Part shown: positions 24,674-45,676 of the stretch, in pieces | How the letters are laid out: each line of letters opens with the position of its first letter | Position numbering within the stretch: position 1 is the first letter of the stretch | Origin: an uncultured Acidimicrobiaceae bacterium | Lineage (GTDB): Bacteria; Actinomycetota; Acidimicrobiia; Acidimicrobiales; Bog-793 | Reading direction: 5' to 3' | Length of the DNA stretch: 64,000 bases | NCBI GenBank assembly: GCA_963803025.1 | Contig: CAWDKZ010000013.1 | Location: 148,831-212,830, forward strand | Notes under the pieces: generated by a model | Seen by the model: only the letters and a program-made list of their open reading frames with translations | What the model was told of the DNA's origin: nothing | Database searches by the model: none | Position numbers and translations under genes: made by a program

Positions 24674-24675
24674 CC

Positions 24676-27280: not shown

Positions 27281-27298
27281 AAGCACGAAGGCGTGCTT
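27281..27298 (+). terminator. Stem-loop AAGCACG-aagg-CGTGCTT after the permease operon
   Basis: Perfect 7-bp stem with a 4-nt loop, 16 nt after the stop. Only a weak T tract follows (gtcgcgttt). Confidence 0.4.
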
Positions 27299-27559
27299 GT
27301 CGCGTTTCCCCTGCCGGCACCTCGGTTGGTAGTTGTCAAGTTCGGCAACTCGTCAACGAGCAAGACACGCGGTGAGATGGACCGCTTCCACGCTTCACCC
27401 TTCGCTTCGTCGAGGTGAGACGCTGGGATGATGAAGCAGTTCTGAAGACCGAGATTGAGGTTTGGTTCAGTCGCTGGTTAGCAAGACGCAGTTACTGACA
27501 ACGTATTCCTTAGGTGCTTCGACGATCGCCTCGGCCCGAGATGGTTCCACGTCTCGATA

Positions 27560-28100: not shown

Positions 28101-28129
28101 ACGTGGTCGCGACGCGGTCTAATAGAGCA

Positions 28130-28915
28130 ATGGGACATCTCGACAAGATCGACCTCTCCGCTTCGCTGACGCGGGAGAAGTCCGAACAGAAGATCGAACG
28201 GCTCCAGCTGCGCCTGCTCCACCTTCGCCTGGTGAGTGGCGGCCTGCTCGGCACGGGCGAGCTCGGCCCCCCGCTGTGCATCGTGTTCGAAGGGTGGGAC
28301 GCGTCCGGCAAGGGCGGTGCGATCAAACGGCTCGTCGGGCGGATCGATCCCCGGCACGTCTCCGTCGCCGAGTTCGGGGTCCCCTCGGAGGAGGAGAAGC
28401 GGCACCACTTCCTGTGGCGCTTCGGGGAGAGCCTGCCGGGCTGGGGAGAGATGAGCGTCTTCGACCGGTCGTGGTACGGGCGGGTGCTCGTCGAGCGGGT
28501 CGAGAAGCTCGTGAAGCCGGACGAGTGGAACCGCGCCTATGGCGAGATCAACGCCTTCGAGCACGGGCTCGTCGACGAGGGGATGACGCTCGTCAAGTTC
28601 TGGCTCCACATCTCCGACGAGGAACAGAAGCGTCGTTTCGAAGCCCGGCGCGACGACCCGCTCCGGCGATGGAAGCTCACCGACGAGGACTGGAGAAACC
28701 GCTCGAAGCGCGCCGAATACGTGAAGGCCGTCGAGGACATGCTCGACAAGACGGACAAGGGCTACGCCCCGTGGAACCTCGTCGCGGCGGAGAGCAAGCA
28801 CTACGCGCGTGTCGCGGTCCTGAAGACCGTCATCGCCCGCATGGAAGAGGGGATGCGCCGCTGGGGGATCGAGCCGCCGGTGTCCGAGGGATCGGACTAC
28901 GACAAGTCGACGTAG
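28130..28915 (+). CDS. ppk2: Polyphosphate kinase 2 family protein
   Basis: IVFEGWDASGKGGAIKRL, FDRSWYGRVLVERV, RRWKLTDEDWRNR. ATG at 28130. Confidence 0.9.
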   Translation: MGHLDKIDLSASLTREKSEQKIERLQLRLLHLRLVSGGLLGTGELGPPLCIVFEGWDASGKGGAIKRLVGRIDPRHVSVAEFGVPSEEEKRHHFLWRFGESLPGWGEMSVFDRSWYGRVLVERVEKLVKPDEWNRAYGEINAFEHGLVDEGMTLVKFWLHISDEEQKRRFEARRDDPLRRWKLTDEDWRNRSKRAEYVKAVEDMLDKTDKGYAPWNLVAAESKHYARVAVLKTVIARMEEGMRRWGIEPPVSEGSDYDKST

Positions 28916-29920: not shown

Positions 29921-31429
29921 GTGAGGGAGGCCTGCGGCGTCTTTGGCGTGTATGCGCCTCGCGTCGAGGTCGCGCCGCTTGTCTTTGACGGGTTGTTCAC
30001 GCTGCAGCACCGCGGACAGGAATCAGCCGGCATGGCGGTGAGCGACGGGCAGACGATCACCGTCGTGAAGGACATGGGCCTGGTGACGTCCGTGTTCACG
30101 CCGCACTCGCTCGACTCGTTGCAGGGCCACCTCGGGCTCGGCCACGTCCGCTACTCGACGATGGGTCAGAGCAACTGGCGCAACGCCCAACCCGTCTACC
30201 GGTCGCACGGTGACGCCGGCTTCGCGCTGGGGCACAACGGGAACCTCACGAACGTCGCCATGTTGGAATCCGAGGCGGGGATGCTCCCCGGGTTCACGCC
30301 GTCGGACAGCGACCTCATCGGCGAGCTCCTTGCTCGGGCGTTTCCCATCGCCGACGAGGGCTCCGTCGCAGAGGGCCTTGAGGAGGCTCTCTGCTCGGTC
30401 TTGCCGCGGCTCGAAGGGGCGTTCTCGCTCGGCTTGATTGACGCGACCCGTCTCTACGCGGTGCGTGACCCGAACGGCTTTCGTCCGTTGTGTCTCGGCC
30501 GTCTCGAGTGGCCGGACGAGGAGGGCTGGGCGGTCGCCTCCGAAAGTCCCGCGCTCGCGACCGTGGGCGCGAGCTTCGTGCGCGAGATCGAACCGGGCGA
30601 ACTCGTCGTCATCGGCCAAGACGGCGTCCGTTCGTTGCGGCCGTTCCCGCCCGCTCGCGTCGTGCCGAAGCTGTGCGTCTTCGAGTTCGTCTACTTCGCG
30701 CGGCCGGACGCCGAGCTGTACGGGAGGGAAGTTCACGCCGCGCGCCGCAGGATGGGCGAGCGACTCGCGGACGAGTCGCCCGTCGAGGCCGACCTGGTGA
30801 TCGGCGTGCCGGACTCCGGTGTCCCGGCCGCGGAGGGATTCTCGGTTCGCAGCGGGATCCCGTTCGGGCAGGGACTCGTGAAGAACCGCTACATCGGGCG
30901 GACGTTCATCGCTCCGACCGTGGCGGCCCGTTCAGACGGCGTCCGGCGCAAGCTCAACCCGTTGCGGGAAAGCGTCGGGGGCAAGCGACTTGTCGTCATC
31001 GACGACTCGATCGTGCGCGGCACGACGACGAGCCAGATCGTACGGGTCCTGCGCGAGGCGGGAGCACGCGAGATCCACCTCCGGATCTCGTCGCCGCCGT
31101 TTCGTTGGCCCTGTTTTTACGGGATCGACACCCCCGTGCGGGAGGAGCTGCTCGCCGCCTTTTCGGACACCGCGGGAATCGCCGCCCAACTCGGTGCGGA
31201 TTCCGTCGCGTACCTGTCGCTGGAAGGGTTGTTTCAGGCCATCGGCGTCCCGGGGTCCGAGTTCTGTTCGGCTTGTCTTTCCGGCGAGTACCCGACTCGG
31301 GTTTCCCTGTCCGCGCCGGACGCCGCCGGCGTTGCGGCCCGCGGAACCTCGGTGCCGCCGGCCGGGTCCGATCGCGTGGTCGCCGGCCACGGGGGGAGTC
31401 TGTGGTCGGGACCGGCGTCGATCCGGTGA
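29921..31429 (+). CDS. purF: Amidophosphoribosyltransferase
   Basis: N-terminal nucleophile MREACGVFGVY, then LQHRGQESAGM and VIDDSIVRGTT (PRPP site). Confidence 0.95.
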   Translation: MREACGVFGVYAPRVEVAPLVFDGLFTLQHRGQESAGMAVSDGQTITVVKDMGLVTSVFTPHSLDSLQGHLGLGHVRYSTMGQSNWRNAQPVYRSHGDAGFALGHNGNLTNVAMLESEAGMLPGFTPSDSDLIGELLARAFPIADEGSVAEGLEEALCSVLPRLEGAFSLGLIDATRLYAVRDPNGFRPLCLGRLEWPDEEGWAVASESPALATVGASFVREIEPGELVVIGQDGVRSLRPFPPARVVPKLCVFEFVYFARPDAELYGREVHAARRRMGERLADESPVEADLVIGVPDSGVPAAEGFSVRSGIPFGQGLVKNRYIGRTFIAPTVAARSDGVRRKLNPLRESVGGKRLVVIDDSIVRGTTTSQIVRVLREAGAREIHLRISSPPFRWPCFYGIDTPVREELLAAFSDTAGIAAQLGADSVAYLSLEGLFQAIGVPGSEFCSACLSGEYPTRVSLSAPDAAGVAARGTSVPPAGSDRVVAGHGGSLWSGPASIR

Positions 31430-31475
31430 CCTCGCGCTTTTCAGGCGCGCGCTCTGCCTGCTGAGCTACCCGACC
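31403..31475 (-). tRNA. tRNA-Phe (anticodon GAA)
   Basis: Hand-folded: GGTCGGG/CCCGACC acceptor, anticodon loop CTGAAAA, T-arm ACCGG-ATCGACG-CCGGT. Overlaps the last 27 nt of the purF ORF. Confidence 0.8.
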
Positions 31476-31556
31476 ATGCCGACGATTGTCGACGCGTCCA
31501 TTGTGCCCGACGCGCGACGCTGCGGGGGAAAGTCGGTCAGCGCAGCGACCATTCAG

Positions 31557-31630
31557 CGGACCTGACGGGATTTGAACCCGCGACCTCCGGCTTGACAGGC
31601 CAGCGTGCACTCCAGGCTGCACCACAGGTC
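31557..31630 (-). tRNA. tRNA-Asp (anticodon GTC)
   Basis: GGACCTG/CAGGTCC acceptor, anticodon loop CTGTCAA, T-loop GGGTTCAAATCCC. Confidence 0.9.
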
Positions 31631-31727
31631 CTTGTCCGCTCGTCCCTCGGATCGCCTCGATCGTGCGTCCCCGGGCGGGCGGGAATGCCCGCTGATCCTA
31701 GGCGATAGCGCGCGGCCGGCGATCGAA

Positions 31728-31800
31728 GCACCCCCAACGGGATTCGAACCCGTGTTTCCGCCTTGAAGGGGCGATGTCCTCGGCCGCTGGACGATGGGGG
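31728..31800 (-). tRNA. tRNA-Glu (anticodon TTC)
   Basis: GCCCCCA acceptor, anticodon arm TCGCC-CCTTCAA-GGCGG, 4-nt variable loop, T-loop GGGTTCGAATCCC. Glu-Asp-Phe gene order as in mycobacteria. Confidence 0.85.
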
Positions 31801-31910
31801 CTCGGTCCGAATGGAGCGCGCGGAGATTACCAGTGACCTGCATGCCGGCGTCACAGCGCTCGTTCCCGCCACGGCGCGGCGACCATCTCGGGCGGCCCGG
31901 GATGTGCCGG

Positions 31911-32838: not shown

Positions 32839-33633
32839 CTAGTGGCGGCGAGCCGTCTCGAAGCGGTAGCCGAGGCCGCGGATCGTCGTGATGAGCTTCG
32901 GTTGGGACGGATTGACCTCGATGTGGGCGCGCAGCCGCTTCACATGGACGTCAAGTGTCTTCGTGTCGCCGACGTAGTCCGCGCCCCAGACCCGCGAGAT
33001 CAGCGTGTCACGGGTGAGAACCCGACCCGCCCTGAGGAGCAGCTGTTCGAGGAGTTCGAACTCCTTCAGCGGCAAGGTGACCTCGCTGCCCCGGACGGTG
33101 CATTCGTGGCGGTCGAGATCGAGCGTCACGTCGCCAACCTCGAGCACGTTGCGGGGGAACACGTCCGACGCCGACGACATCGCGGTTTCCGTCGCCGTCG
33201 ACCGTGGACTTTCCTTGGATTCCACCCGTTGCGTCCTGCGAAGCACGGCGCGCATGCGAGACACGAGCTCGTGCAGGCGGTAGGGCTTGGCCACGTAGTC
33301 GTCGGCGCCGACCTCGAGGCCGACGACCGTGTCGATTTCGGTGGTCTTCGCCGTGACCATGATGATCGGCACCGCCGAACGCGTTCGGATCGTCCGGCAC
33401 ACGTCGAGCCCCGAGATCTTCGGCAGCATGATGTCGAGCAGGATCAGATCGGGTTCGCTTTCTTTGAAGCGCTCGAGTGCTTCGGCGCCGTCGCGTGCGA
33501 CCGTGATGGCGAAGCCTTCGCGCTCGAGCCCGATGACGAGTGCATCGACGAAGGATTCCTCGTCCTCCGCGAGCAGTACCTCGATGCGCCTGTCCGTTGC
33601 CGCGCGTTCGTCGGAATCCGTCGTGGCGGTCAT
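32839..33633 (-). CDS. OmpR/PhoB-family response regulator (RegX3/PhoP-like)
   Basis: Receiver domain (VLLAEDEE...[16 protein letters not shown]...MVTAK) and winged-helix output ([13 protein letters not shown]...LDVHVKRLR...IRGLGYRF). Confidence 0.85.
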
Positions 33634-34886
33634 TGGTCACCTCTTCCCTGCAAGGGGAGTCGGAGCGTAAACGTTGAGCCTTCGCCCTCGCGCGAGTCGA
33701 CGTGGACACTGCCGTGGTGGCTGTTCGCGACGTGGCGGACGATCGAAAGACCAAGCCCCGTTCCGCCGGTCGATCGGCTCCGTCCGTGGTCGACGCGGTA
33801 GAAACGCTCGAAGATCCGTTCGAGATCGCGAGTCGGTATCCCCAGTCCCTTGTCGGCAACAGCGATGGCGACGTCGTCGCCGTCGAGGTAGCCGATGAAG
33901 TCGACGACTCCGCCTTCGTAGGAGAACTTCACTGCGTTCTCGAGCAGGTTGTAGAGCGCCGAGGTCAGTTGGCGGCGGTCGCCGAGCACCGCGACCGGCG
34001 GGGAGGGTTCCTCGAGTTCGATCTCGACGCCCCGTTGCTCGGCCGCCGACCGGACTCGTTCTGCGGCTTCGGCCATGACGAGGTTGACCAACACGGGTTC
34101 GCGCGGTGGTGACTCCTCGTTCTCGATGCGCGACAGATCCAGCAGGTCGTCGATGATCCGAGAGATGCGGAATGCCTCGGAGTGGATACGTTGCGCGAGA
34201 CGCCTCGACACCTCGGGTTCGGTCTCGGTGAGCAGCGTCTCGGCGAGAAGCCCGAGCGCACCCATCGGCGTCTTCAGCTCGTGGCTGACGTTGGCGACGA
34301 AGTCCCGGCGGACTTCCTCGAGCCGACGCCGTTCGGAGACGTCATCGATGATGGCGATGACCCCGAGCGTCCGCTGGCCGTTGTCGATGGTCTGCGTCCG
34401 GACCGACAATGTCCGGCGCGGCGGGCCGTAAAGCTCGAGGGTGCGCTCCTCGGAAGCACCCGGCGACGTCGTGCCGAGCAACTCGTCGACCGCTTGCGCG
34501 GCGAGAGCGTCGCCGTGGCGGCTGCCCATCAGTGCGAGGGCGCGGCTGTTACGAAAGACCACTTCACCGTGCTCGTCACAGACGATCACGGCCTGGGCGA
34601 GGGAATCGAGGACCTGGCGCAGCCGGATGGCGTCTGCGCTCGAATCGGCGACCGCCTCGGCCGCATGCTCGGTCGCGCGCTCGACGTGACCAAGCGCATC
34701 CTCGATTCGCTTGGGGTCTCTCGGCAGCGGGTCGGCACCGAGCCGATCGCCGAGGGCGACCAGTCTCTGCTTGAGCGCGTGCACACCACGTCGGCTGCCG
34801 ATGGCGTACGCCACGCCAACGAGTACGACGAAGATGGCAGCTGCGATCGGCAGGTTGAGAACGGTCGCTCGCAGGACGGCGATCAC
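33630..34886 (-). CDS. Sensor histidine kinase (SenX3/PhoR-like; TM, PAS, HisKA, HATPase)
   Basis: H-box FVANVSHELKTPM, N/G boxes LYNLLENAVKF and DKGLGIP...GGTGLGLSIV. ATGA-coupled to the regulator. Confidence 0.85.
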   Translation of the reverse strand: MIAVLRATVLNLPIAAAIFVVLVGVAYAIGSRRGVHALKQRLVALGDRLGADPLPRDPKRIEDALGHVERATEHAAEAVADSSADAIRLRQVLDSLAQAVIVCDEHGEVVFRNSRALALMGSRHGDALAAQAVDELLGTTSPGASEERTLELYGPPRRTLSVRTQTIDNGQRTLGVIAIIDDVSERRRLEEVRRDFVANVSHELKTPMGALGLLAETLLTETEPEVSRRLAQRIHSEAFRISRIIDDLLDLSRIENEESPPREPVLVNLVMAEAAERVRSAAEQRGVEIELEEPSPPVAVLGDRRQLTSALYNLLENAVKFSYEGGVVDFIGYLDGDDVAIAVADKGLGIPTRDLERIFERFYRVDHGRSRSTGGTGLGLSIVRHVANSHHGSVHVDSREGEGSTFTLRLPLQGRGDQ

Positions 34887-34953
34887 GGCAACCGCCGAGG
34901 AACTGGCACACCTCCAGCATTGCAGTTTGGGGGATGGTTTCCCGCGCCGATTA

Positions 34954-34978
34954 TGAAAGCTATTGAAATAGCATGAAA
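34954..34978. promoter_or_regulatory. Three TGAAA direct repeats at exact 10-bp spacing in the senX3/T4SS-like divergent promoter region
   Basis: TGAAA at 34954, 34964 and 34974, inside the only AT-rich stretch of the 227-bp intergenic region. On the senX3 strand it reads TTCAT-n5-TTCAA-n5-TTCAT. Confidence 0.45.
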
Positions 34979-35113
34979 CTTAGTGTACGGTGACGACCGC
35001 GCGTCGGAAGGCTGCCGTTGCTGGTGGGATCCGAACGCCGCCGCTCGTCGGGACTGCCCGACCGTCCGGTCGCGACGACCGGACCCATCGTCTCTATCCC
35101 GAGGAGGGGCACC

Positions 35114-35434
35114 GTGTCGACCGTCCTTGCAATCGTGTCCGGCTGCTTTGTCGAGTCTGGCACGCTTTCGCTCAACCCGAACTCCCAGGGCCTCCCGGGC
35201 AGCGGGACACTGCAGGATCTCGTGAACGGGATCGGCTTCTGGGGACTGCTCGCGGCGTTGGCGGGGTTGGTCATCGGCGCCGCGACGTGGGCACTCGGCG
35301 CGCACACGAACAACTATCAGAACGCGTCCACCGGTCGGCGTGCCGTGCTCGTCTCCGCGGCTGCGGCGCTCGTCATCGGCGCGGCGCCGACGCTGCTCAA
35401 CTTCCTGTTCAACGCCGGTCAGAGTTTGCACTGA
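35114..35434 (+). CDS. Small two-helix membrane protein, VirB2/TrbC pilin-like topology
   Basis: GTG 6 nt after GAGGAGG. A short N-terminus ends in VSGC. Two hydrophobic helices (FWGLLAALAGLVIGAATWALG; AVLVSAAAALVIGAAPTLL) are separated by a polar loop. Confidence 0.45.
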   Translation: MSTVLAIVSGCFVESGTLSLNPNSQGLPGSGTLQDLVNGIGFWGLLAALAGLVIGAATWALGAHTNNYQNASTGRRAVLVSAAAALVIGAAPTLLNFLFNAGQSLH

Positions 35435-35437
35435 GCC

Positions 35438-36581
35438 GTGCGGCCCGGTGCAGTGGTTGGCCAAGCTGCCGGACACGACTCTGTGCTTGCCGGGATCATC
35501 TCGATCAGCGTTGGCGCCCTCGTCAACGGCTTACTCAACGGCATTACCAGCTGGATAGAGAGCGGAACGGCGGCGCTGCTCACGGCGTTCGGTCACGCGC
35601 TCGAATGCCACGACGAGTTCACCCCTCGGCAACGGGTTCGGCACAGAGTTCGGCGTCGTGTGGAAGATCGGTGCGCTTCTCACACTGCCGTTCCTTCTGC
35701 TCGCAACCATCCATGCTGTCGTTCGACAGGACCTCAGCCTGATCACGCGAGCCGTGTTCGTGCGGCTGCCGTTCGCCGTGCTCTTCGGGGGCCTCGCCGT
35801 CGAGCTCGTCACCCAAGCGCTTGCCGTGACCGATTCGCTGAGTTCGGCGATCCTCGCCGCGGCCGGCCATCCGGCGCGCCTCGAGATCAACCAGCTGGTC
35901 GGGGCCTTCGCGCCAGGGTTCGGTGGGAACGTCCTGTCGGGATTCGTCGGCGTGCTGTTTGCTCTGCTCGCCGCCGCCGTGGCGTTCATCCTCTGGGTCG
36001 AGCTGATCGTGCGATCTGCCGCGGTCGCGGTCGCGACGCTATTCATGCCAATCGCGCTCGCCGGACTCGTGTGGTCAGCCACAGCGCACTGGGCGCGCCG
36101 CGTCGGTGAAACACTCGCCGCGCTCATCTTCTCGAAGCTCGTCATCGCTGGCGTGCTCGCCCTGGCGGCGTTGTCACTCGGAGCCGCCTCCGGTTTGTCG
36201 GGCGTGGTCCAAGGCATCGCCCTCCTCGCCTTGGCGGCGCTCTCGCCGTTCACGCTGCTGAAGCTGATCCCGCTGTTCGAGTCCGGTGCGGTTTCGCACC
36301 TCGAAGGTGTCGCCCGTCGTGGATCTCGCGCGGCGTTGGATGCCGCGGCCCTCGTCGCCGGTCCAGGAGATCTCCTCGAGGCCGGTGCCGTGCCTGGCGG
36401 CGATACGGCGGTCGAGTTCGCCCAGGGTGCGCGCCTGACGGGAGCCGAGTACCTGGCGACAGTCGCGCACTTCCGTGAGGAGATCGCACAGCACGACGCG
36501 TTGAGCGATGCACCCGAGGCCGGGCCCGAGCACGTCGACGCCCGCGAGGCGTCGCGTGAAGCCGGAAGCGACGATGACTGA
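35438..36581 (+). CDS. Polytopic membrane protein, VirB6/TrbL-like, with an apparent +1 frameshift near 35559-35630
   Basis: The N-terminal frame (SVLAGIISISVGALVNGLLNGITSWIESGTAALLTAFGHAL) and the downstream frame (LGNGFGTEFGVVWKIGALLTLPFLLLATI..., at least 6 TM) are contiguous only after a 1-nt shift. The span is 1144 nt, which is 3n+1. Confidence 0.55.
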
Positions 36582-37999
36582 CGACAAGGAGCGCTTTCGG
36601 TTCGGTCCCCGCGACCGCCGCGGACTCGTTGCCGGTGCCCGTGCGGGTCAGCTCGCCGTCGTCGCGCTCGCGCTTGTCGTGTCCGTCGTCGTGCTCCGTG
36701 CACTGGGTGGACCGGCGCGCGGGCCCGTCGCGCTCGCGGTCGTGCTCGTCGCGGTCGGGTCGGTGAGTTGGCCGATCAACGGGCGCACGCTCGACGAATG
36801 GGTGCCCGTGGTCGTCCGTTTCGCATCCGGCGCCATCGCTGGTGGCCGACAAGATGCCGTCGGCGTTCACCGCGGGGGCGACACCCGCCGTGCGCCATCG
36901 CTGTTCGGTTCGTTCGAGGTCTCTGAGGTCGCGACCGATTCGTCCGGATCGATCGGCGTCGTCCGCGATCGACAACTCGGGACGGTGACGGCGTTGCTCG
37001 CTCTCGGTGGCGAATCGTTTTCGCTCCTCGGCGAGGCCGATCGGGCACGCCGCATCGACGGCTGGGCGAGCGTGCTCGCGAGTGTCGCACGCGAGGCCGG
37101 TTCGGTGCACCGTCTGCAGTGGATCGAGAGGACCGTCCCGGATCCGGGCGATGCCCTCCTCGCCCATCTCGAGGAGGCGGTCGCGGCGTCGGGCGGATTC
37201 GATGGCACCACCTTCGCCGTCCAGCGTTCCTACCGCGAACTGCTCGCCACCGAATGTTCCCGAGCGCTCGCTCACGAGCTCTACTTCGCGCTGACCGTCC
37301 GTGGTCCGCGGCGTCCCGGTGCGGGAGACGAGCGTGTGGCGGCGACGCTCGAGACGGAGATTGCGCTCCTCGACGAGCGCTGCCGGCGCGCTGGGCTCGA
37401 GGTGATCGGGGTCCTCACCACCCGCGGCATCGCCTCGGCCTTGCGGCGTGGCTTCGACGTCGTTCCGGCGCCGAAGCCGGCGGAATGGCCTTGGCCGGTG
37501 GCCGTCTCGTCAACCTGGACCTCGTTCCGGACCGACGGGCTGTGGCACGCGACGTTTTGGATCGCGGAATGGCCACGGCACGAGGTCGGCAGCGATTTCC
37601 TGGTGCCGCTCCTCGTTGGCGCAGGAGACCGTCGGGCCGTGTCGGTCGTCATGGCGCCGGTCCCGCCGCTGCGCGCCGTCCGCACGGCCGAGCACGCCCG
37701 CACGTCCGGCGTCGCCGACGCCGAGCTCCGTCGTCAACACGGCTTTGCCCTCACGGCGAGAGTCCGGCGGGAGCACGAGGCGGTGGTGCAACGCGAGCAC
37801 GAGCTCGCCGAGGGTCATGGGGCCTATCGCTTCTCCGCCTATGTCACCGTCGAGCGCGCCAAGCCCGGGCGAGCTCGACCGGGCTTGCCACCGGGTGGAG
37901 CACGCGTCCGCTCTGGCGGGACTCGACCTCTGCCGGCTCTACGGAACGCAGGCCGAGGCGTTCTGCTGCACGCTTCCCGTCGGTCGCGGATGCGAATGA
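36574..37999 (+). CDS. VirB4 N-terminal-half-like protein (actinobacterial SCO6880-like) with an apparent +1 frameshift near 37849-37869
   Basis: MTDDKERFRFGPRDRRGLVAG followed by a TM hairpin. The C-terminus PGELDRACHRVEHASALAGLDLCRLYGTQAEAFCCTLPVGRGCE reads in the next frame and ends in an ATGA overlap with the ATPase gene. Confidence 0.6.
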
Positions 38000-39252
38000 G
38001 GCTGCCCGCGCACGAGGCGACCACGGCGCAACTCGGTGCCGCTTACCCCTGTGTCGCGACGCGTCGGCTTCCTGCCAGGGGTGTGTTCATTGGACGCGAC
38101 CTGTTCGGCGGATCGTTCGTGTACGACCCGTTCGAGCTGTATCGGGCGGGCGCGATCACCAACCCGAACATGGTCGTGCTCGGGCAGATCGGCCGGGGCA
38201 AGAGCGCGTTCGTGAAGACGTATCTCCTCCGGCAGGCGGCGTTCGGACGCCGCATCGTGATCCTCGATCCCAAAGGCGAGTACGGGCCCTTCGCCCGGGC
38301 TCTCGGTGCCGAACCCATCGTCCTCCGCCCGGGGGGTTCGGTCCGGCTGAACCCGCTCTCGGTCGCCGAACGCTCGACGGCGGATGAGTCGGGCGACGTG
38401 TCGTCGCGCCGTTCGGTCGTCGCCGATCTCGCTTCCGCGTGTCTCGGCCGATCCCTCGGTCCCGCCGAGCACGTGGCGATCGATCTCGCGCTCGACAGGG
38501 CGCGCCGCGCGGCCAGGTCGCCGACGCTGTCCTCCATCGTCACAGCGCTGCTCGAACCGAGCAGCGGGTCTGCCCGCTCGATCGGTTGCCGCGTCGCCGA
38601 GTTGGCCGCCGACGGACGGGAGGTTGGTCTCGAGCTCCGCCGTCTCGTGTCGGGTGAGCTGGCGGGAATGTTCGACGGCGCGACAACACCAGGAGTTGAC
38701 CTCTGCGCGCGCGTCGTGGTCATCGATCTTTCGCACGTCTACAGTTCGCCGGCCCTCGGGGCGCTCGTCACGTGTGCTGCCGCGGCGCTCGAGCGCGTCT
38801 TGGACCGACCCGGGACGGCCCAGACCTTCCTCGTCATCGACGAGGGATGGGCCGTCGTGCACAACCCCGGCGCGGCGAGGTTCCTCCAGGCGTCCTTCAA
38901 GCTTGCCCGGGCGCGCGGGATCGCCAACATCGTCGTCGTCCACCGGGTATCGGATTTCGCCGCCTCGGGCCCCGCCGGAAGTGTCGCCGTCCGCCTTGCC
39001 GAGGGTTTGGTCGCGGACTGCGAGACGGTCGTCTGCTATGCGCAAAGCGACGCGGAGGTCCCGGCAGCGATGCGGCTCTTCGGGCTCTCGGAGGCCGAGT
39101 CGCGCTTGTTGCCGAGGCTCCGCCGAGGGGTCTCGTTGTGGCGCATCGGAACTCGGCCGTACCTCGTCGAGCATCGCCTCGCGCCGTCCGAACGCGCGAT
39201 CGTCGACACCGACGCGCGACTCGCATCTCCGACGTCGAGCGCGCCAGCGTGA
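37996..39252 (+). CDS. VirB4 C-terminal-half-like ATPase
   Basis: Walker A VVLGQIGRGKSAF, Walker B TFLVIDEGW. It is the in-frame second part of the 914-aa track ORF. Confidence 0.75.
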   Translation: MRLPAHEATTAQLGAAYPCVATRRLPARGVFIGRDLFGGSFVYDPFELYRAGAITNPNMVVLGQIGRGKSAFVKTYLLRQAAFGRRIVILDPKGEYGPFARALGAEPIVLRPGGSVRLNPLSVAERSTADESGDVSSRRSVVADLASACLGRSLGPAEHVAIDLALDRARRAARSPTLSSIVTALLEPSSGSARSIGCRVAELAADGREVGLELRRLVSGELAGMFDGATTPGVDLCARVVVIDLSHVYSSPALGALVTCAAAALERVLDRPGTAQTFLVIDEGWAVVHNPGAARFLQASFKLARARGIANIVVVHRVSDFAASGPAGSVAVRLAEGLVADCETVVCYAQSDAEVPAAMRLFGLSEAESRLLPRLRRGVSLWRIGTRPYLVEHRLAPSERAIVDTDARLASPTSSAPA

Positions 39253-41027
39253 GCTCGGGTTCCCGCAGGCGGACTCGCGGCGTGCACCCGGAGTGGAAGC
39301 GGCGGTCGGCGGGCTCCAGCCGGTCCGCCGGGCAAGGTCAGGTCGTTGTCGCCGCCGGCGTCGCTGGGCTATCGGGGCTCTGTTGGGTCGCGGGGGGCTG
39401 CGCGACGCTCGTCGCCGGCCACGGCTGGCACGAGATCCGCCCTGTCGCGTCCCTCGGTTTGCTCGTCGGTCTGCTCTGCCACCCGGCCACGCCGGATCTT
39501 GCCTGGCCCGTTGCCGTCCGAAGGTTCCTGCCCCCCGGGGGGATCTGCTGGGTGATCCTTGCCGCGCTCACGCTCGGTTGCGGTGCGACCGGGATCGCAG
39601 TGCGGTCGATCGTCCGGTCCTGGCCCGGCCGCGCGCGGCCGCCTCGGGACTCCGGGGCCGTGTGGGCGGGACGAGACGACCTCCGATCGCTCGTCGTCAG
39701 GAGACCGGGAGCAGGCCGCCTTGTTGTCGGGCGTGTCGGACGGACGCTTGTCGCGGCCGAGTGCGGACAGTCGTTGCTCGTCGCCGGGCCGACACAGTCC
39801 GGCAAGACCTCGGGGCTGGCGATCCCGGCGATTCTGGAATGGGACGGCCCGGTCGTCGCGACCAGCGTGAAGACCGACCTCGTGCGGCAGACGGCCCGGT
39901 GGCGGGAGTCGATCGGCCGTGTGCTCGTCTACGACCCGACCGGTGTCACGGGCGCGTCGGGTGCGGGTTGGTCGCCGCTCGCCGAGGCGTCCGACTGGGC
40001 GGGGGCGCGGCGGGTCGCGGCGGGACTGTCCGCCGTCCAGCGGGAGGGTGGTGTTTCCGAGGACGCCGCGTTCTGGATCGGGCTCGCAGAGAAGATGCTC
40101 GGTCCGTTGCTTCTCGCGGCGGCGGCGTCGGGGCGAAGGATGGCCGACGTCGTGCGGTGGGTCGACTCGGGGGAGGTCACCGAGGTGCTCGACGCCCTGG
40201 AATCCGCGGGCGCCTCCGAGGCGTTGTCGGCCGCGCAGGCGAGTTTCTCGCGAGAGGACCGTCAGCTGAGCTCTGTCTACGCGACCGTCGAGACCCTCGT
40301 CGCGGCCTTCGCGGACCCCGCCATCGCCGCCGCGACGGCGAGTCACGACATCGACGCGACGCGATTCTTCGACGAGGGTGCCGGCACGCTGTTCCTCGTC
40401 GCGCCGTCGCACGAGCAGGCGCGGTTCCGTCCGGTGTTTGTCGCAGTTCTGCGCTGCATCCTCGAGCGCGCGATCACGAAAGCGTCGCGTGACGGCCGTC
40501 TCGATCCTCCGTTGCTCGTCGTGCTCGACGAGGCCGCCAACATCGCGCCACTGTCGGATCTTGACGTGCTGGCGTCGACGGCGTCCTCGCACGGCATTCA
40601 GCTCGTCACCGTCTGGCAGGATTTCGCCCAGATCGAGGCGCGTTACGGGGCTCGCGCCGCGACCGTCGTGAACAACCACCGGGCCAAGCTCGTCTGTTCG
40701 GGGATCGCCGACCCGGCGACACTCGAGCAGATGTCCCGGCTCATCGGTGAGGAGCTGCGCCCGGTCGAGACGCTGACCGTCGACCGGGCTGGCACCGCGT
40801 CGACGACGCGCAGCCATGCCGAACGTCGCCTCGCGTCGGCCGCGTGGTTGCGGCGACTCGACCCCGGTGAGGCGGTCCTCCTCTACGGTCACCTGCCGCC
40901 GGCTCGAGTCATGCTGCGCCCCTTCTACGCCGAGGGCGACCTTCGACGCATGGCCGGCTCCTCGACAGCGGACGCCCCGCGGCACGCACCGGGCGCGCGT
41001 CGCCGCCGGTCGCGCCGGCGGCGGTAG
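39249..41027 (+). CDS. Type IV coupling protein (VirD4/TraG family)
   Basis: N-terminal TM helices, Walker A LLVAGPTQSGKTS, Walker B PLLVVLDEAANI, then HGIQLVTVWQDFAQI. GTGA overlap with the upstream ATPase. Confidence 0.8.
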   Translation: MSSGSRRRTRGVHPEWKRRSAGSSRSAGQGQVVVAAGVAGLSGLCWVAGGCATLVAGHGWHEIRPVASLGLLVGLLCHPATPDLAWPVAVRRFLPPGGICWVILAALTLGCGATGIAVRSIVRSWPGRARPPRDSGAVWAGRDDLRSLVVRRPGAGRLVVGRVGRTLVAAECGQSLLVAGPTQSGKTSGLAIPAILEWDGPVVATSVKTDLVRQTARWRESIGRVLVYDPTGVTGASGAGWSPLAEASDWAGARRVAAGLSAVQREGGVSEDAAFWIGLAEKMLGPLLLAAAASGRRMADVVRWVDSGEVTEVLDALESAGASEALSAAQASFSREDRQLSSVYATVETLVAAFADPAIAAATASHDIDATRFFDEGAGTLFLVAPSHEQARFRPVFVAVLRCILERAITKASRDGRLDPPLLVVLDEAANIAPLSDLDVLASTASSHGIQLVTVWQDFAQIEARYGARAATVVNNHRAKLVCSGIADPATLEQMSRLIGEELRPVETLTVDRAGTASTTRSHAERRLASAAWLRRLDPGEAVLLYGHLPPARVMLRPFYAEGDLRRMAGSSTADAPRHAPGARRRRSRRRR

Positions 41028-41185
41028 AAGGGACCGACCGCCGGCAGCGATGCTGGTTCGCCGCTCGGTTCCGCCGCGTCGTCGTCGCGCGAACGTCGGC
41101 CGACGGGTCGGGATCGCGGCTTCGTGCCCGTCGCGAAGTCGCAGCTGAGCGGGAGCGAAACGGCACCCGTCGCCGTCGGGAAGGA

Positions 41186-41212
41186 TTCATGCGGACGTCA
41201 TCGTCTGGTCAC
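41186..41212 (+). promoter_or_regulatory. Pho-box-like triple direct repeat at 11-bp periodicity upstream of pstB
   Basis: TTCAT (41186), GTCAT (41197) and GTCAC (41208). About 90 nt upstream of the pstB ATG at 41302. Confidence 0.45.
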
Positions 41213-41301
41213 TTGGAGTTCTCTTTCGGTTCAAGTCGCCTGGGTACGGTCGCGGCGACGTGGCGAATCCCTTTGAAGCGTTCGAACCCAAGGTGGCCTC
41301 A

Positions 41302-42111
41302 ATGGTCGGGAGCGGCGCCGCCGGCACGACACTGCTCGAGGACACAGACGTCATGCACGCGCACCAGGTATCGCTCGGGTTCGGCGCCACGACGATCATG
41401 CGGGACATCTCCGTCGGTTTCCCGAAGGGCACGATCACGGCGCTGATCGGCCCGTCGGGCTCCGGCAAGACGACCTTCCTGCGCGCGCTGAACCGGATGA
41501 ACGACAAGGTTCGCGACTTCTGGCACCACGGCCAGATCTCGCTCTACGACGACGAGATCTACCACGCCAGCATGGACCCGCTCGTGCTGCGCCGACGCGT
41601 CGGTATGGTCTTCCAACGGCCGAATCCGTTCCCGATGTCGATCCTCGACAACATCGTCTCGGGCGTCCGAGCCCACCGCATGGCGAAGCGATCCGAGCTG
41701 AGGGACATCGCCGAGACCCGTCTCGCCGAGGTCGGCCTGTGGAGCCACGTGGCGGACCGCCTTCACGACTCGCCGTTCCGACTCTCCGGTGGTCAGCAGC
41801 AGATGCTCTGCCTCGCCCGCGCCCTCGCCGTCGAGCCGGAGGTGCTGCTGCTCGACGAACCGACCTCCTCACTCGACCCCCGGTCGACCGAGGCGGTCGA
41901 GGAGCTGGTCCGTCGTCTCACCCCCGGGCTCACGGTGATCATCGTGACGCACGATCTCCACCAGGCCCGCCGCCTCTCGGACAACACGATCTTCTTCTAC
42001 GAGGGCTGCATGATCGAAACGGCGCCGACTTCGCAACTGTTCACTCGTCCCGAACGTCCCGAGACCGCTCGGTACATAGGAGGCGAGGTCGATCCGACAG
42101 GGAGACCCTGA
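41302..42111 (+). CDS. pstB: Phosphate ABC transporter ATP-binding protein
   Basis: ALIGPSGSGKTTFLRALNRMND, LSGGQQQMLCLARAL, LLLDEPTS. ATG 5 nt after AAGGTGG; the track ORF starts at 41260. Confidence 0.9.
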   Translation: MVGSGAAGTTLLEDTDVMHAHQVSLGFGATTIMRDISVGFPKGTITALIGPSGSGKTTFLRALNRMNDKVRDFWHHGQISLYDDEIYHASMDPLVLRRRVGMVFQRPNPFPMSILDNIVSGVRAHRMAKRSELRDIAETRLAEVGLWSHVADRLHDSPFRLSGGQQQMLCLARALAVEPEVLLLDEPTSSLDPRSTEAVEELVRRLTPGLTVIIVTHDLHQARRLSDNTIFFYEGCMIETAPTSQLFTRPERPETARYIGGEVDPTGRP

Positions 42112-42225
42112 ACGGGGATCGACGTGAGTGCCAGGGGACCGGTGACGGAGCCGGGATCCTCTGGAGGCAACTGCCCCGCAGACCGCCCCCCCCGGGCGGA
42201 GGACCGAAAGGAGCACAACCGAGTT

Positions 42226-43437
42226 ATGTACACGAACGCAGTAGGTACGACGAGGCGCAGCCGGTTCGGCCGGGGCCGGGTGACGGGCGTCGCGGCGATC
42301 GCTCTCGCCGCCGCCCTCGGTCTTGGCGCGATCGTCGTGTCACCGGGCGGCGCGGCGACGAGCAAGGCAATGACGATGAGCCAAGCCGAAGCGGCACTGG
42401 CGACCCTCGAGGCGCTGGCGCCGGCGAAGGCGCCGACGCTCACCGAGGCGGGCTCCTCGCTCTTCTACCCGCTCTGGGAGGAGTGGTCCGGGTCGACGGC
42501 CCCGTCGCCACCCGTGCCGGTGAGCCCCGGCAAGGGCGGCTCGGGTCTGGGACAGTCCGAAGCAGAAAACGGCACGATCAACATCGGCGGGTCGGACGGG
42601 TTCCTGCCGGCAGCGACGATGACGGGACCGCCCGCCGTTCTCAACATTCCCGTGACGGTCTCGGCGCAGGCGGTCGTCTACGACCTGCACAGCATCCCCG
42701 CGACGGATCACCTGAAGTTCTCGTCGACCGTGCTGAACGGCATCTACCAAGGAAAGATCAAGAACTGGGACAGCAAGGCGATCGCCGCGTTGAACCCCAA
42801 GGTGAAGCTGCCGGACAAGCCGATCATCCCCGTCCGTCGCATCGACTCGAGTGGTGACACGTTCATCTTCACGTCGTACCTGTACTACGGGGACAAGGAG
42901 AGCTGGACGCGCCAGTCGCCGTACGACGGGCCGCAGCTCATCTACACGACGTGGCCGTACGTCGACAACGAGCTCGCCGAAAGCGGTAACTCGGGCATCG
43001 AGGCGGCTGTCGAGGCGAACCCCGGCTCCATCGGCTACCTGGGTGTCAGCTACCTGCCATCGGCGGTTTTCGCCTCCCCGCCCCTGGGCTACGCGGAACT
43101 GGAGAACGGCTCGAACAAGTTCGTACTCCCGACGCCGGGGTCGATCAAGGCCGAAGTGGAGGCCTACCCGGACATCCCGGCAAATGGTGCGATTTCGCTC
43201 ATTGATTCGTCCAGTGCGCCGACCGGCTACCCGATCGTGAACTTCGAGTACGCGATCGTGCTCGAACACCAGCCGAGTCTGACGGCGGCCGACTCCATCA
43301 AGGCGGAGCTCGCCTGGGCGATGGACCCCGCTCACGGTGCGACCCCGGCGTTCCTCAACCCGGTGGAGTTCAGGCCACTGGCGCTCAATGCGCTCAGCGT
43401 GTCGATCGGCCTGCTTAACGAGATCAGCGCTTCCTAG
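42226..43437 (+). CDS. pstS: Phosphate-binding protein PstS
   Basis: ATG after AAGGAG. Signal peptide, then GSSLFYPLW and INIGGSDG motifs typical of PstS. Confidence 0.9.
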   Translation: MYTNAVGTTRRSRFGRGRVTGVAAIALAAALGLGAIVVSPGGAATSKAMTMSQAEAALATLEALAPAKAPTLTEAGSSLFYPLWEEWSGSTAPSPPVPVSPGKGGSGLGQSEAENGTINIGGSDGFLPAATMTGPPAVLNIPVTVSAQAVVYDLHSIPATDHLKFSSTVLNGIYQGKIKNWDSKAIAALNPKVKLPDKPIIPVRRIDSSGDTFIFTSYLYYGDKESWTRQSPYDGPQLIYTTWPYVDNELAESGNSGIEAAVEANPGSIGYLGVSYLPSAVFASPPLGYAELENGSNKFVLPTPGSIKAEVEAYPDIPANGAISLIDSSSAPTGYPIVNFEYAIVLEHQPSLTAADSIKAELAWAMDPAHGATPAFLNPVEFRPLALNALSVSIGLLNEISAS

Positions 43438-43520
43438 CAGGGGATCCCGCGGTCACGGATGCCCGTTCATGGTGCGGCAACGTCCTGTGGGTGTGGCATC
43501 CCGTGACCGACTGGAGTGCA

Positions 43521-44624
43521 ATGACGACAGCTAGCGAGGCGGCCGGCGCGAAGGGTGCGCGCCGGCCGCCCCTGTTGCCAGGCACTGGGTCCGGTGTTCG
43601 TGGCAGCGGTGCCGTCTCGCCGCGCCGGCACAGCCGCTACCTCGAGCGGCTCCTCGCCGCAGGCAGCGGCTTGTTGGCGACCTTGCCCTTCGCGGCGCTC
43701 ATCGCCATGCTCGTCGTGTTGCTCGTCGAGGCGATGCCGTCGATCCGCTACAACGGGACACGGTTCGTCACGTCGAGCACCTGGACGATCGGCAACACCT
43801 ACGGCGACATCCTCCACAGCGGCGGGGTCGCCCACCTCGCCGGCGCGGAGTTCGGGTCCTGGCCGCTCATCGTCGGGACCCTGGAGTCATCGGCGATCGC
43901 GCTCCTCGTCGGGCTGCCGATCGCCGTGGGCGCGGCCGTCCTGGTCGTGGAGAAGCTCCCCGCCCGCGCCGGCACGGTGATCGGCATCTGCCTCGAGATC
44001 CTCGCCGGCATCCCGAGCATCGTCATCGGCGTGTGGGGCGCCCTCACCTTCGGGCCGTGGATCGCCAAGGAGATCTACCCCGCGCTCTCGCACCTGCCGA
44101 ACGTGCCGCCGTTCGACATCTTCAGGGGCGCCGTCGGCGACGGCGAGGGGCTGCTGACGGGTGGTCTCGTGCTCGCCGCGATGATCATTCCGATCATCGC
44201 GGCGACGACCCGTGACCTGTTGCGCCAGGTGCCCGAGACGACGAAGGAAGGAGCCGAGGCGCTCGGGATGACCGACGCCGAGGTCTTCCGACGGGTCCAG
44301 GCGCGCTGGGTGCGGACCGGCGTGATCGGGGCGGCCGTGCTCGGGCTCGGCCGGGCACTCGGCGAGACGATGGCCGTCGCACTGATCTGCGGCGGCGAGA
44401 ACCAGCTCGCCCACAACATCTACGGCGTCATGACGACGATCGCGGCGAACATCGTGTTGACCCTCGACTCCGCGCAGACCGACCCGAGCGGCCTCGCGGT
44501 GAAGGCACTCGCCGAGCTCGCGCTCGTGCTCCTGATCATCACGCTCATCGTGAACGTCCTCGCGCGCGTCATCGTCCGACGTTCCGCCCACGGCGCGGTG
44601 CTCCCGGTCGGTGCCGGCTTCTGA
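43521..44624 (+). CDS. pstC: Phosphate ABC transporter permease PstC
   Basis: Polytopic. EAA-type loop TKEGAEALGMTDAEVFRRV. ATG 5 nt after GGAG; the track ORF starts at 43491. Confidence 0.9.
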   Translation: MTTASEAAGAKGARRPPLLPGTGSGVRGSGAVSPRRHSRYLERLLAAGSGLLATLPFAALIAMLVVLLVEAMPSIRYNGTRFVTSSTWTIGNTYGDILHSGGVAHLAGAEFGSWPLIVGTLESSAIALLVGLPIAVGAAVLVVEKLPARAGTVIGICLEILAGIPSIVIGVWGALTFGPWIAKEIYPALSHLPNVPPFDIFRGAVGDGEGLLTGGLVLAAMIIPIIAATTRDLLRQVPETTKEGAEALGMTDAEVFRRVQARWVRTGVIGAAVLGLGRALGETMAVALICGGENQLAHNIYGVMTTIAANIVLTLDSAQTDPSGLAVKALAELALVLLIITLIVNVLARVIVRRSAHGAVLPVGAGF

Positions 44625-45676
44625 TGGCGGCAACCACCGGGGCTGTCATACCACCCCGTCGCGCGACCGGCACCCCGTCGTCGACGCCTCGGACGGTCCT
44701 GTACCGGCGTCGGGTCATCAACTGGCTGTGGTGGGCAGGTTGCGGCTTCGGCCTCGCGTTCCTGGTCGCGCCGGTGGTGTGGATCCTCTACGGCGTGTTC
44801 CAACGCGGCATCAACGGTTGGCGCTGGAACGTGCTCTGGACCCCGACGTCCGGGCTCGGTGGCGGTCTCGCCAACGACATCGTCGGAACCTTGCTCATCA
44901 CGTTCGGCGTCGCGGTGATCGCGGGGATCGTGGGGATCGGGGCCGGGATCTACCTCGCCGAGTTCTGCCGGCCGGGCATCGTCTCGACGGTGCTGCGGAG
45001 CGCGTCGGAGGTGCTCTCCGGTGTCCCCTCGATCGTGTTCGGCTACGTCGGGTACCTCGCGCTCGTCATCGGGCTGCGCTGGAAGTTCTCGCTGCTCGCC
45101 GCCCTTGTCGTGCTCTCGCTGCTGGTCGTGCCCTACATCGCGAAGTCGACGGAACTCGCCCTCAACCAGGTGCCGCTCGCCTATCGCGAAGGTGGCGAGG
45201 CGCTCGGGATGGAGAAGTCCCACATGCTGCGTCGGGTTGTGCTGCGCTCGGCGGTCCCGGGGATACTCACGGGCATCGTTGTCGCGATCGCGATCTCGAT
45301 CGGCGAGACGGCGCCGCTGCTCTACACCGCCGGGCAGAACAGCACGTCCTACCCGACGGGCGCGTTACTCCACTCCGCGGTCCCCTACCTCACCTATGTC
45401 GTCTACGCCGACTATGACAGCCCGTTCCCGACCCAGCACGTCCTCTCGCACGACGCCGCGATGGTCCTCGTCGTGCTCGTCGTCGCCCTGATCCTCGGCT
45501 CCCGCCTCATCGTGCGCGCGACCCAGCGCTACGCGCCGAACCGGGCGCTCGCCGCGGCGAACAAGGGATGGCGGGCGCGCATGCCGCGGGCCGATATCGA
45601 GCCTGGGGTCGACAGACTTTTCGGCCGCGAGGCCGCGCCGGTGGACCCGGACGAATCGCCTCTCAGTAGGCGGTAA
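44624..45676 (+). CDS. pstA: Phosphate ABC transporter permease PstA
   Basis: YREGGEALGMEKSHMLRRVVL loop. Start overlaps the pstC stop. Confidence 0.9.
   Translation: MAATTGAVIPPRRATGTPSSTPRTVLYRRRVINWLWWAGCGFGLAFLVAPVVWILYGVFQRGINGWRWNVLWTPTSGLGGGLANDIVGTLLITFGVAVIAGIVGIGAGIYLAEFCRPGIVSTVLRSASEVLSGVPSIVFGYVGYLALVIGLRWKFSLLAALVVLSLLVVPYIAKSTELALNQVPLAYREGGEALGMEKSHMLRRVVLRSAVPGILTGIVVAIAISIGETAPLLYTAGQNSTSYPTGALLHSAVPYLTYVVYADYDSPFPTQHVLSHDAAMVLVVLVVALILGSRLIVRATQRYAPNRALAAANKGWRARMPRADIEPGVDRLFGREAAPVDPDESPLSRR

Follow-up and report, generated by a model that had tools for sequence, protein, structure and literature searches.

The window analysed here is a 64,000-nt stretch of Acidimicrobiales DNA with a GC content of 68.3%. 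At positions 35114-41027 it carries five co-directional genes, here called g1 to g5, which an earlier note on this DNA had described as a module resembling a type IV secretion system (T4SS), free of relaxase, integrase and att sites and placed between a phosphate two-component system and the pstBSCA genes. Gene set, order and direction are as described there; however, g2 and g3 are frameshifted in the window and have no intact open reading frame (ORF) in it. The five genes are contiguous, with no extra ORF within the block:

g1, 35114..35434, forward strand: 106 aa, DUF6112, two hydrophobic helices, VirB2-like topology.
g2, 35438..36581, forward strand: TrbL/VirB6-like polytopic membrane protein (SCO6881-like), with a +1 insertion at 35602.
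g3, 36574..37999, forward strand: SCO6880 family, VirB3-like transmembrane hairpin and VirB4 N-terminal domain, with a +1 insertion at 37852.
g4, 37996..39252, forward strand: VirB4 C-terminal (RecA-like) ATPase, 418 aa.
g5, 39249..41027, forward strand: VirD4/TraG-type coupling protein; an alternative start at GTG 39282 gives 581 aa.

The junctions are as tight as had been claimed: g1 and g2 are separated by a 3-nt gap (GCC), g2 and g3 overlap by 8 nt (ATGACTGA), and the pairs g3/g4 and g4/g5 are joined by ATGA and GTGA, respectively. A Shine-Dalgarno sequence GAGGAGG (35101-35107) stands ahead of the start codon of g1 (GTG 35114). The Walker motifs named beforehand are present (GQIGRGKS and FLVIDEGW in g4, GPTQSGKTS and LLVVLDEAAN in g5), and the hydrophobic segments fit the description, with two in g1, about six in g2, a hairpin in g3 and two to three N-terminal segments in g5. 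Gene callers place the start of g5 in sister contigs at GTG 39282, which may be the true start instead of 39249; an exact-protein look-up of g5 translated from 39249 gave no record. The hand count of about 65% GC does not hold, as the module has 70.3%. This composition is ordinary, with 22% of all 5.9-kb segments of the window at or above the value of the module.

The two frameshifts, which the earlier note had missed, appear in a plot of third-position GC by reading frame (GC3) and in the ORF table as a switch of frame in g2 near 35600 and in g3 near 37850. By alignment with six relatives (75-80% DNA identity) one surplus base was located at each site: an extra C at 35602 (CGCGCT[C]GAATGCC), which moves g2 from frame 2 to frame 0, and an extra G at 37852 (ACCGTC[G]AGCGCG), which shifts g3. 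Contigs of the same species were retrieved by exact-protein look-up (two from GCA_049284135.1, four Logan short-read contigs, one ENA long-read contig and one JGI contig of 316 kb); these eight contigs come from independent assemblies and are 98.3-100% identical to the window. The C at 35602 is missing in L081, L082, L084, L086, L087 and L090 as well as in the six relatives, the G at 37852 in L082-L087, L090 and six more distant relatives, and every near-identical assembly that covers either site is without the extra base (eight assemblies overall). One same-species contig differs from the window over 7.2 kb by the two insertions and by nothing else. Accordingly, g2 is intact and called with 365 aa in L081, L084, L086, L087 and L090, and g3 is intact in sister contigs with 474-480 aa called; the functional arguments below are built on the intact g1-g5 sequences of sister contig L084.

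In both cases CGCGCT^GA has turned into CGCGCTCGA, once on each strand, and no other indel separates the window from the short-read assemblies across the approximately 20 kb compared. The probability that two random indels both hit the module is about 0.09, which is not compelling. Because eight near-identical assemblies lack both bases and the two sites share the CGCGCT^GA context, the insertions are, judged from the assemblies, most likely a context-dependent consensus error and not biology; an error of this kind might possibly stem from long reads or from methylation. Ten further CGCGCTGA sites in the window are unaltered. Programmed frameshifting in g2 and g3 was considered and is ruled out, the sister strains being simply without the extra bases. 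Owing to the insertion at 37852, positions 36508-39252 read as a single g3-g4 ORF of 914 aa, which calls for caution in annotation: two single-base insertions make a split VirB4 look like a 914-aa fusion protein. The representative library protein P0218 (928 aa), whose first half matches the g3 profile, could be a natural fusion or a like artefact.

The T4SS homology of all five proteins is supported by profile searches and by the modelled structure of g3, and we are highly confident that the module is of T4SS type. A T4SS cluster on plasmid NZ_CP050950 of Iamia sp. SCSIO 61187 holds homologues of all five proteins, collinear and with 33-46% identity. The small protein g1 matches DUF6112 (E 1e-11) and, weakly, T4SS_pilin (E 0.007) in Pfam, in line with its proposed VirB2-like nature; its hydrophobic segments cover residues 36-54 and 77-95, and with a mean column identity of 61% among 45 homologues it surpasses the other four genes in conservation. 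The VirB6/TrbL-like assignment of g2 is supported by matches to TrbL_4 in 15 of 46 homologues and to TrbL in 5 of 46 (best E 4e-6); no other family recurs among these homologues, one of which weakly matches DUF6861. The g2 protein itself matches TrbL_4 weakly, under the Pfam gathering score, is 37% identical (E 2e-13) to a protein of the Iamia plasmid annotated as 'type IV secretion system protein', and matches SCO6881_fam (NF047967) with E 2.5e-14 and 53 bits, the cut-off of this narrow 'exception' model being 325. A profile of g2 homologues searched against the sequences of the PDB gave no match.

For g3, the proposed N-terminal half of VirB4 with a transmembrane hairpin, family and fold agree. 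The protein matches the SCO6880 family (NF042935) over residues 10-470 of 474 with E 2e-76 and 257.7 bits (cut-off 60). An AlphaFold2 model based on 64 homologues (predicted local distance difference test, pLDDT, 87.6; predicted template modelling score, pTM, 0.85) was compared with the PDB by Foldseek: the 14 best matches are all TrwK/VirB4 of R388 (E 4e-10 to 5e-8, TM-score approximately 0.5), the next match has E 0.02, and the model aligns with the N-terminal half of TrwK/VirB4 only. Given the N-terminal hairpin and the TrwK/VirB4 fold matches, g3 is read as a VirB3-like hairpin fused to a VirB4 N-terminal domain. An identity as EccE was rejected, since the Pfam EccE match is weak (E 7e-4) and the fold matches VirB4 instead. 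The counterpart g4 matches the VirB4/TraC/CD1110 profiles of NCBIfam only over their C-terminal ATPase part (E 4e-21), covering positions approximately 413-728 of the VirB4-family profiles, and shows further AAA_10, TraG P-loop and DUF87 domains. The division of VirB4 over two genes, as read in the earlier note, is thus borne out by profile and fold matches. The identification of g5 as VirD4/TraG is confirmed by T4SS-DNA_transf (E 1e-34, above the gathering score), TraG-D_C (E 8e-20) and TrwB_AAD_bind (E 1.5e-16). The SCO6880-like family is large, with 3,216 clusters at 50% identity at E up to 1e-3, and has homologues on 153 actinobacterial plasmids.

The position of the module was compared among the 80 best related loci, one per species-level genome; the closest relatives of the g4 ATPase all belong to metagenome-assembled genomes of Acidimicrobiales/Acidimicrobiaceae (52-83% protein identity). 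A kinase-regulator pair of PhoR/SenX3-like type is directly divergent from g1 in 57 of the 80 loci, with gaps of mostly 150-250 nt, and lies on the same side of g1 at a distance of 2-3 kb in 3 further loci, one of which has an IS1595-type transposase gene between. In total, the block is divergent from the same two-component system in 60 of 80 loci; the other 20 are incomplete contigs, loci without g1-g3 inside 10 kb, or members of a clade with a TrwC relaxase (see below). Pairwise distances of g4 correlate with those of senX3 (r 0.62) and of an E1 dehydrogenase (r 0.66), about as closely as the latter two with one another (r 0.70). The ratio of nonsynonymous to synonymous substitutions (dN/dS), computed against six relatives, is 0.14 for g1, 0.18 for g2, 0.17 for g3, 0.17 for g4 and 0.25 for g5, compared to 0.27-0.28 for pstC, pstA and the E1 dehydrogenase. 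Both Walker motifs are invariant in the 80 loci for g4 and conserved in 63 loci for g5. At the level of sequence, the module is under purifying selection and vertically co-inherited with the PhoR/SenX3-like system across the order. The earlier statement that it is not a recent conjugative element therefore stands, since 60 of 80 relatives carry the block at this chromosomal position, it has diverged together with its flanks, and its composition is ordinary. No att-like direct repeats were found: the repeat search gave just short GC-rich repeats, which at 70-90% identity are no att candidates.

The lack of a relaxase and an integrase is likewise confirmed. Searches by tblastn with four TrwC proteins from sister loci were blank across the 64 kb, and a Pfam scan of approximately 45 window ORFs found no such domain. 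Peptidoglycan hydrolase, VirB8-like and adhesin genes are found neither in nor beside the block, whose flanks are the two-component system and pst. According to the literature, the defining parts of T4SS-type integrative and conjugative elements (ICEs) of actinobacteria are integrase, TrwC relaxase, VirD4 and VirB4 (PMC3429521), and known MPF_FATA elements encode a VirB8 homologue (review); as the module is without integrase, TrwC, VirB8-like and hydrolase parts, we do not class it as a conjugative element.

The relatives present a more varied picture. In five loci a TrwC/MobF relaxase of 700-900 aa (E down to 5e-63) is divergent from g1 and replaces senX3 (L025, 4321-6885; L031, 4138-6852; L038, 3759-6452; L057, 4837-7083; L072, 323-2449); TrwC was found neither in the remaining related loci nor in the window. 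Together with L062, L040, L049 and L079, whose upstream region is not covered, these five loci form one clade in a neighbour-joining tree of g4, which is midpoint-rooted and as such gives no order of the chromosomal states with and without relaxase. The clade has a setting of syntenic housekeeping genes (MurT/GatD, AI-2E transporter, ZIP transporter, sigma-70), and no integrase or att sites were detected at its loci. With regard to the possibility, raised beforehand, of a larger element around the block in related genomes, a TrwC relaxase adjoins the block in the sister clade, without integrase or att sites. The locus of this clade could be a chromosomally fixed minimal conjugation unit, similar to an Hfr (high frequency of recombination) arrangement. 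On the plasmid of Iamia, which likewise belongs to the Acidimicrobiales, the five homologues are accompanied by a MobF relaxase, a ParA-like ATPase, a helix-turn-helix (HTH) protein, membrane proteins and a DD-carboxypeptidase. Drawn from the Iamia plasmid, the TrwC clade and the relaxase-less loci, the family spans three states, namely a plasmid conjugation system, a chromosomal block with relaxase, and a chromosomal block without relaxase as in the window.

The module is probably a chromosomally fixed, domesticated, relaxase-less derivative of an actinobacterial (Gram-positive type) conjugative T4SS with a host function. T4SS without relaxase (MOBless) arise repeatedly from conjugative T4SS (PMC3548315). 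In the proposed mechanism, g1-g5 would form a translocon of the cytoplasmic membrane only, an assumption that follows from the lack of wall-spanning or adhesin parts. Hexamers of the VirD4-type protein g5 would select a cytoplasmic substrate, g3 and g4 together would act as a VirB4-type motor anchored by the hairpin of g3, and the VirB6-like g2 and the VirB2-like g1 would build the membrane channel. The apparatus would no longer serve the self-transfer of a mobile element and would instead carry a substrate of the host, protein or nucleoprotein, through the membrane, a role also suggested for the Cmd proteins of Streptomyces. Its transcription would be tied to the neighbouring regulator via the shared control region of 150-250 nt, which contains tandem repeats with a TTCA core.

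The closest studied relative is the cmd operon of Streptomyces coelicolor (SCO4126-4131) with the paralogous cluster around SCO6878/6880/6881. The chromosomal, co-transcribed operon cmdABCDEF encodes a membrane-bound VirB4-like ATPase and five membrane proteins, of which CmdC resembles SCO6880 and CmdD resembles SCO6881 (PMC2782261); its loss leaves plasmid transfer unaffected, but aerial growth, septation and the segregation of chromosomes are perturbed and actinorhodin is increased (PMC2782261; PMC6585502). Both cmd and the module are chromosomal, combine a VirB4-like ATPase with membrane proteins, have no relaxase in the operon and are conserved within their lineage. Within the module, g3 belongs to the SCO6880 family above the cut-off, g2 has the weak SCO6881_fam match, and the g4 ATPase follows g3 via the ATGA overlap, the likeness to CmdB being one of description. 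The module is probably the Acidimicrobiales counterpart of the Streptomyces cmd/SCO6880-type cluster, a comparison made via descriptions and family models. The two differ in gene number (six versus five) and in host class, which is Acidimicrobiia for the module; no PhoR/SenX3-like partner is described for cmd, whose phenotypes (sporulation, chromosome segregation, actinorhodin) are peculiar to Streptomyces. As the earlier note took no account of the cmd operon, it overrated the novelty: relaxase-less actinobacterial T4SS clusters have been described (cmd, MOBless surveys), and what is new is the order-wide pairing with a phosphate-type sensor and the upstream repeat.

T4SS of actinobacterial plasmids and ICEs (the Iamia plasmid; Streptomyces SLP2.19-23; the ICEs of Ghinet and Bordeleau) share DUF6112, SCO6880, ATPase and TraG proteins with the module. 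In mobile versions the set is extended by a MobF/TrwC relaxase, a ParA-like ATPase, an HTH protein, additional membrane proteins and a peptidoglycan hydrolase, and in ICE versions further by an integrase and by att sites, which frequently lie at tRNA genes; the module lacks all of these. With canonical VirB/VirD4 systems (R388 Trw, Agrobacterium VirB) the module has in common the VirB4 fold and ATPase, VirD4, a VirB6/TrbL-like protein, a VirB3-like hairpin and a VirB2-like subunit. In contrast to these systems, the module divides VirB4 between two genes and has VirB3 joined to the N-terminal half, and VirB1, B5, B7, B8, B9, B10, B11 as well as relaxosome genes are missing. No outer-membrane complex or pilus tip is expected in the host of the module, because the organism is monoderm.

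The surroundings of the module comprise the following features:

31402-31801, reverse strand: cluster of tRNA-Phe, tRNA-Asp and tRNA-Glu, 3.3 kb left of the module.
32839..33633, reverse strand: OmpR/PhoB-type regulator (RegX3-like; Pfam Response_reg and Trans_reg_C), true start probably a few codons downstream.
33630..34886, reverse strand: PAS-HisKA-HATPase kinase (SenX3/PhoR-like; Pfam), divergent from the module.
34953..34978, forward strand: three tandem WTGAAA hexamers (ATGAAA, TTGAAA, ATGAAA) at 10-nt spacing, a candidate operator overlapping a -35-like TTGAAA.
34986..34991, forward strand: putative -10 element TACGGT, 17 nt past TTGAAA.
41185..41250, forward strand: PHO-box-like array upstream of pstB, five 11-nt units with the position weight matrix (PWM) consensus GGTTCACCTGG, then TACGGT.
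41260..45676, forward strand: pstB-pstS-pstC-pstA (Pfam), context outside the module.

The earlier note had denied a flanking tRNA or direct repeat. The absence of att-like repeats stands, whereas the tRNA cluster does lie to the left, separated from the block by conserved genes for ClpS, DUF2017 and the two-component system. A scan of the whole window with Rfam found these and other tRNAs and nothing else. The phosphate-gene setting is likewise correct in part: the two-component system is on the left and divergent, and pst is on the right in the window, but adjacency to pst is clade-specific, the two-component system being the sole general neighbour. In NCBIfam the regulator is best matched by MtrA, YycF and PhoB, all under their cut-offs, and the kinase by PnpS (290 bits) and PhoR (275 bits), both under cut-offs as well; PstS, PstC and PstA are over their cut-offs, and PstB reaches 331 against a cut-off of 343. 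A phosphate-sensing role of the kinase-regulator pair would fit the nearby pstBSCA or phoU genes and the PHO boxes of pstB. The right flank is pstBSCA in the clade of the window and in several other clades. A convergent phoU gene directly follows g5 in 8 loci (L017, L019-L023, L026, L027; at approximately 13000-14100), and phoU lies between g5 and pstB in 3 loci (L008, L028, L030). In the largest distant clade the right flank consists of ordinary metabolic genes without pst or phoU. No phoU homologue was found in the 64-kb window. The genes that follow g5 in distant clades were screened for conserved accessory or substrate functions, and only ordinary metabolic genes (short-chain dehydrogenase/reductase, P450, luciferase-like, amidase, ROK) or phoU came up. 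A PPK2 gene is located 6 kb left of the module.

The WTGAAA array is unique in the 64 kb (2 overlapping matches versus 0.01 expected), and all 70 of 70 matches in 1.53 Mb of related loci are upstream of g1, including those in loci of the TrwC clade. At the equivalent site, approximately 45 related loci have 2-4 WTGAAA hexamers at 10-nt spacing followed by a -10-like element TAC..T; an alignment of 10 relatives shows the positions T.TA...T of the putative -10 element to be invariant, and TACGGT also follows the PHO-box array of pstB. A generic scan for sigma-70 promoters and terminators called no promoter, with terminators at chance level. In L069, where senX3 is 2 kb away, the motif is still upstream of g1. 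Its retention there and in the TrwC clade indicates that the motif belongs to the module and not to senX3. On the Iamia plasmid the motif is absent. The PHO-box array of pstB is kept in 16 relatives, with a consensus as in Streptomyces PHO boxes. Applied to the intergenic region between g1 and senX3, the PWM of the pst units exceeds the 95th percentile of GC-matched controls in 41% of the 58 loci (5% expected); in the window the score is 17.1 versus a 99th percentile of 15.9, and the best arrays face senX3 with a spacing of 10 nt, not 11 nt. A strict triple TCA(T/C/A) pattern was found in 7 of 58 loci only and was replaced by the looser motif and the PWM.

Between the putative promoter and g1, a conserved leader block GCCGCTCGTCGGGAC...CCGG occupies window positions 35040-35100; it has no Rfam match and its fold is not significantly stable. 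The fold of the leader of approximately 115 nt (34995-35120) is no more stable than that of shuffled sequences (z = -1.46), and an Rfam scan of 34800-41400 at E up to 1 gave no match. Several distant loci have an ATG 7-9 nt past the -10 element, pointing either to a transcript without leader or to a small ORF upstream.

Conserved divergent pairing of a regulator with an operon is usually a sign of regulation. Control of the module by the neighbouring regulator is therefore plausible, as far as gene order and repeats can tell. A precedent for such an arrangement is known from M. tuberculosis, where RegX3 directly controls ESX-5 via three imperfect 5-bp direct repeats with a 10-bp period (bioRxiv 10.1101/400960). 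The module similarly has three WTGAA(A) repeats with a 10-bp period between a regulator pair and a secretion-type operon. The cases differ in the system (type VII versus T4SS-derived) and in the repeat (GGTGA versus WTGAA), and the repeats of the module are candidate sites.

Several observations weigh against the interpretation of the module as a domesticated host translocon under control of the adjacent regulator. In the window itself g2 and g3 are disrupted, and kinase and regulator are under the curated PhoR/PhoB cut-offs. The WTGAAA repeats stay with g1 where senX3 is absent or displaced (L025, L031, L038, L057, L069, L072); since they persist without senX3, and with a spacing of 10 nt, not 11 nt, they are perhaps not sites of the neighbouring regulator. 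The sister clade keeps a TrwC relaxase right beside the same block. The coupling protein is complete, with TraG-D_C and all-alpha domains (TrwB_AAD) that are typical of DNA-transfer systems, and relaxase-less actinobacterial T4SS may reflect unrecognised relaxases (Guglielmini et al., PMC3548315).

The last three points lead to the explanation that survives best among the rivals, namely that the module is still a conjugation apparatus, which moves chromosomal or mobilisable DNA with a relaxase and oriT encoded elsewhere, or with a relaxase that escapes recognition. As g5 is complete and the TrwC of the sister clade adjoins the block, at the exact position of senX3 and accompanied by the same repeat motif upstream, the module may still transfer DNA with the help of a relaxase in trans; that the Iamia homologue is a MobF-associated T4SS points in the same direction. 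However, no TrwC homologue was found in the 64 kb and no relaxase or integrase among the scanned ORFs, and the hydrolase, VirB8-like and adhesin genes usual in Gram-positive conjugation are missing in and beside the block. Inheritance of the locus is stable throughout the order, in the manner of a host operon, and the homologous cmd cluster of Streptomyces is without effect on plasmid transfer (PMC2782261). We consider this explanation unlikely.

A further explanation is a phosphate-starvation device, in which the regulator turns the translocon on at low phosphate, for DNA release or uptake or for the secretion of phosphate-scavenging proteins. It would account for the divergent PhoR/SenX3-like pairing in 60 of 80 loci, the placement of the module between the two-component system and pstBSCA or phoU in several clades, the PPK2 gene nearby and the PHO-box-like intergenic repeats, and it has a precedent in RegX3 and ESX-5. 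This evidence is purely positional, though. The repeat motif tracks g1 and not senX3, its spacing is unlike that of the pst PHO boxes, the adjacency to pst or phoU is lost in the largest distant clade, and no conserved gene for a candidate secreted substrate lies beside the module. Moreover, T4SS that take up DNA (ComB type) are not known to have a coupling protein. A phosphate-starvation device is hence rather improbable. Its far-reaching form, an order-wide domesticated T4SS under phosphate-sensing control that moves DNA or nucleoprotein at phosphate limitation (release, cell-to-cell chromosomal transfer, scavenging), must be called a long shot; if it were true, the integrase-less TrwC sister clade would be an Hfr-like intermediate of domestication.

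A decaying remnant, with real frameshifts and a module that is pseudogenised and functionless in the genome of the window, is very improbable: the two +1 insertions do break g2 and g3, and the sole indels in approximately 20 kb relative to the short-read assemblies both fall inside the 5.9-kb module, but this coincidence is not compelling at the probability given above, the eight near-identical assemblies are without the insertions (one with zero mismatches over 7.2 kb), the identical type of event in one 8-mer on opposite strands speaks for a context-dependent consensus error, and purifying selection and invariant catalytic motifs extend throughout the lineage.

With the domesticated derivative as the probable reading, a relaxase-less T4SS module can persist as a host operon that is under selection and passed on stably throughout an order of soil and peat bacteria, which are abundant and for the most part uncultured. 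The locus also offers handles on Cmd-type function, namely a candidate regulator, a candidate operator, and a natural series of states that runs from the plasmid via the chromosomal block with relaxase to the one without.

Some related loci deviate from the compact arrangement. In L077 (7394-10001) and L078 (5709-10001), 2.6-4.3 kb are inserted between g3 and g4, and the only gene identified in the insert of L078 encodes an FAD oxidoreductase-rhodanese. In some relatives (among L032, L035, L079 and L049), the 10 kb upstream of g4-g5 contain no g1-g3; this region of L035 holds genes for a methyltransferase and flavin oxidoreductases, and L032 has a partial second copy of g4.

The rest of the window consists of housekeeping genes (catalase, 1-deoxy-D-xylulose 5-phosphate synthase, hopanoid genes, metal transporters, PPK2, haem and Lar genes, signal peptidase). 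The sole mobile-element gene seen encodes an unrelated DDE transposase (DUF772 and DDE_Tnp_1) at 17160-18722, just past tRNA-Ala (16867-16942) and 16 kb from the module. The hopanoid genes at 13687-16813 code for a squalene-hopene cyclase (664 aa) and an HpnH-like radical-SAM (S-adenosylmethionine)/DUF3463 protein; the cyclase gene is not called on sister contig L088. A segment of lower GC content (60-63%) at 22500-27500 carries a ZnuA/ABC/ABC-3 metal-uptake operon. The adjoining ABC-3-like ORF at 27462-28169 overlaps the start of PPK2 and has a shorter counterpart, a fragment of the ABC-3 family, in L090, and two compensating indels (27269/27972) separate the window from this 98.3%-identical contig at this place.

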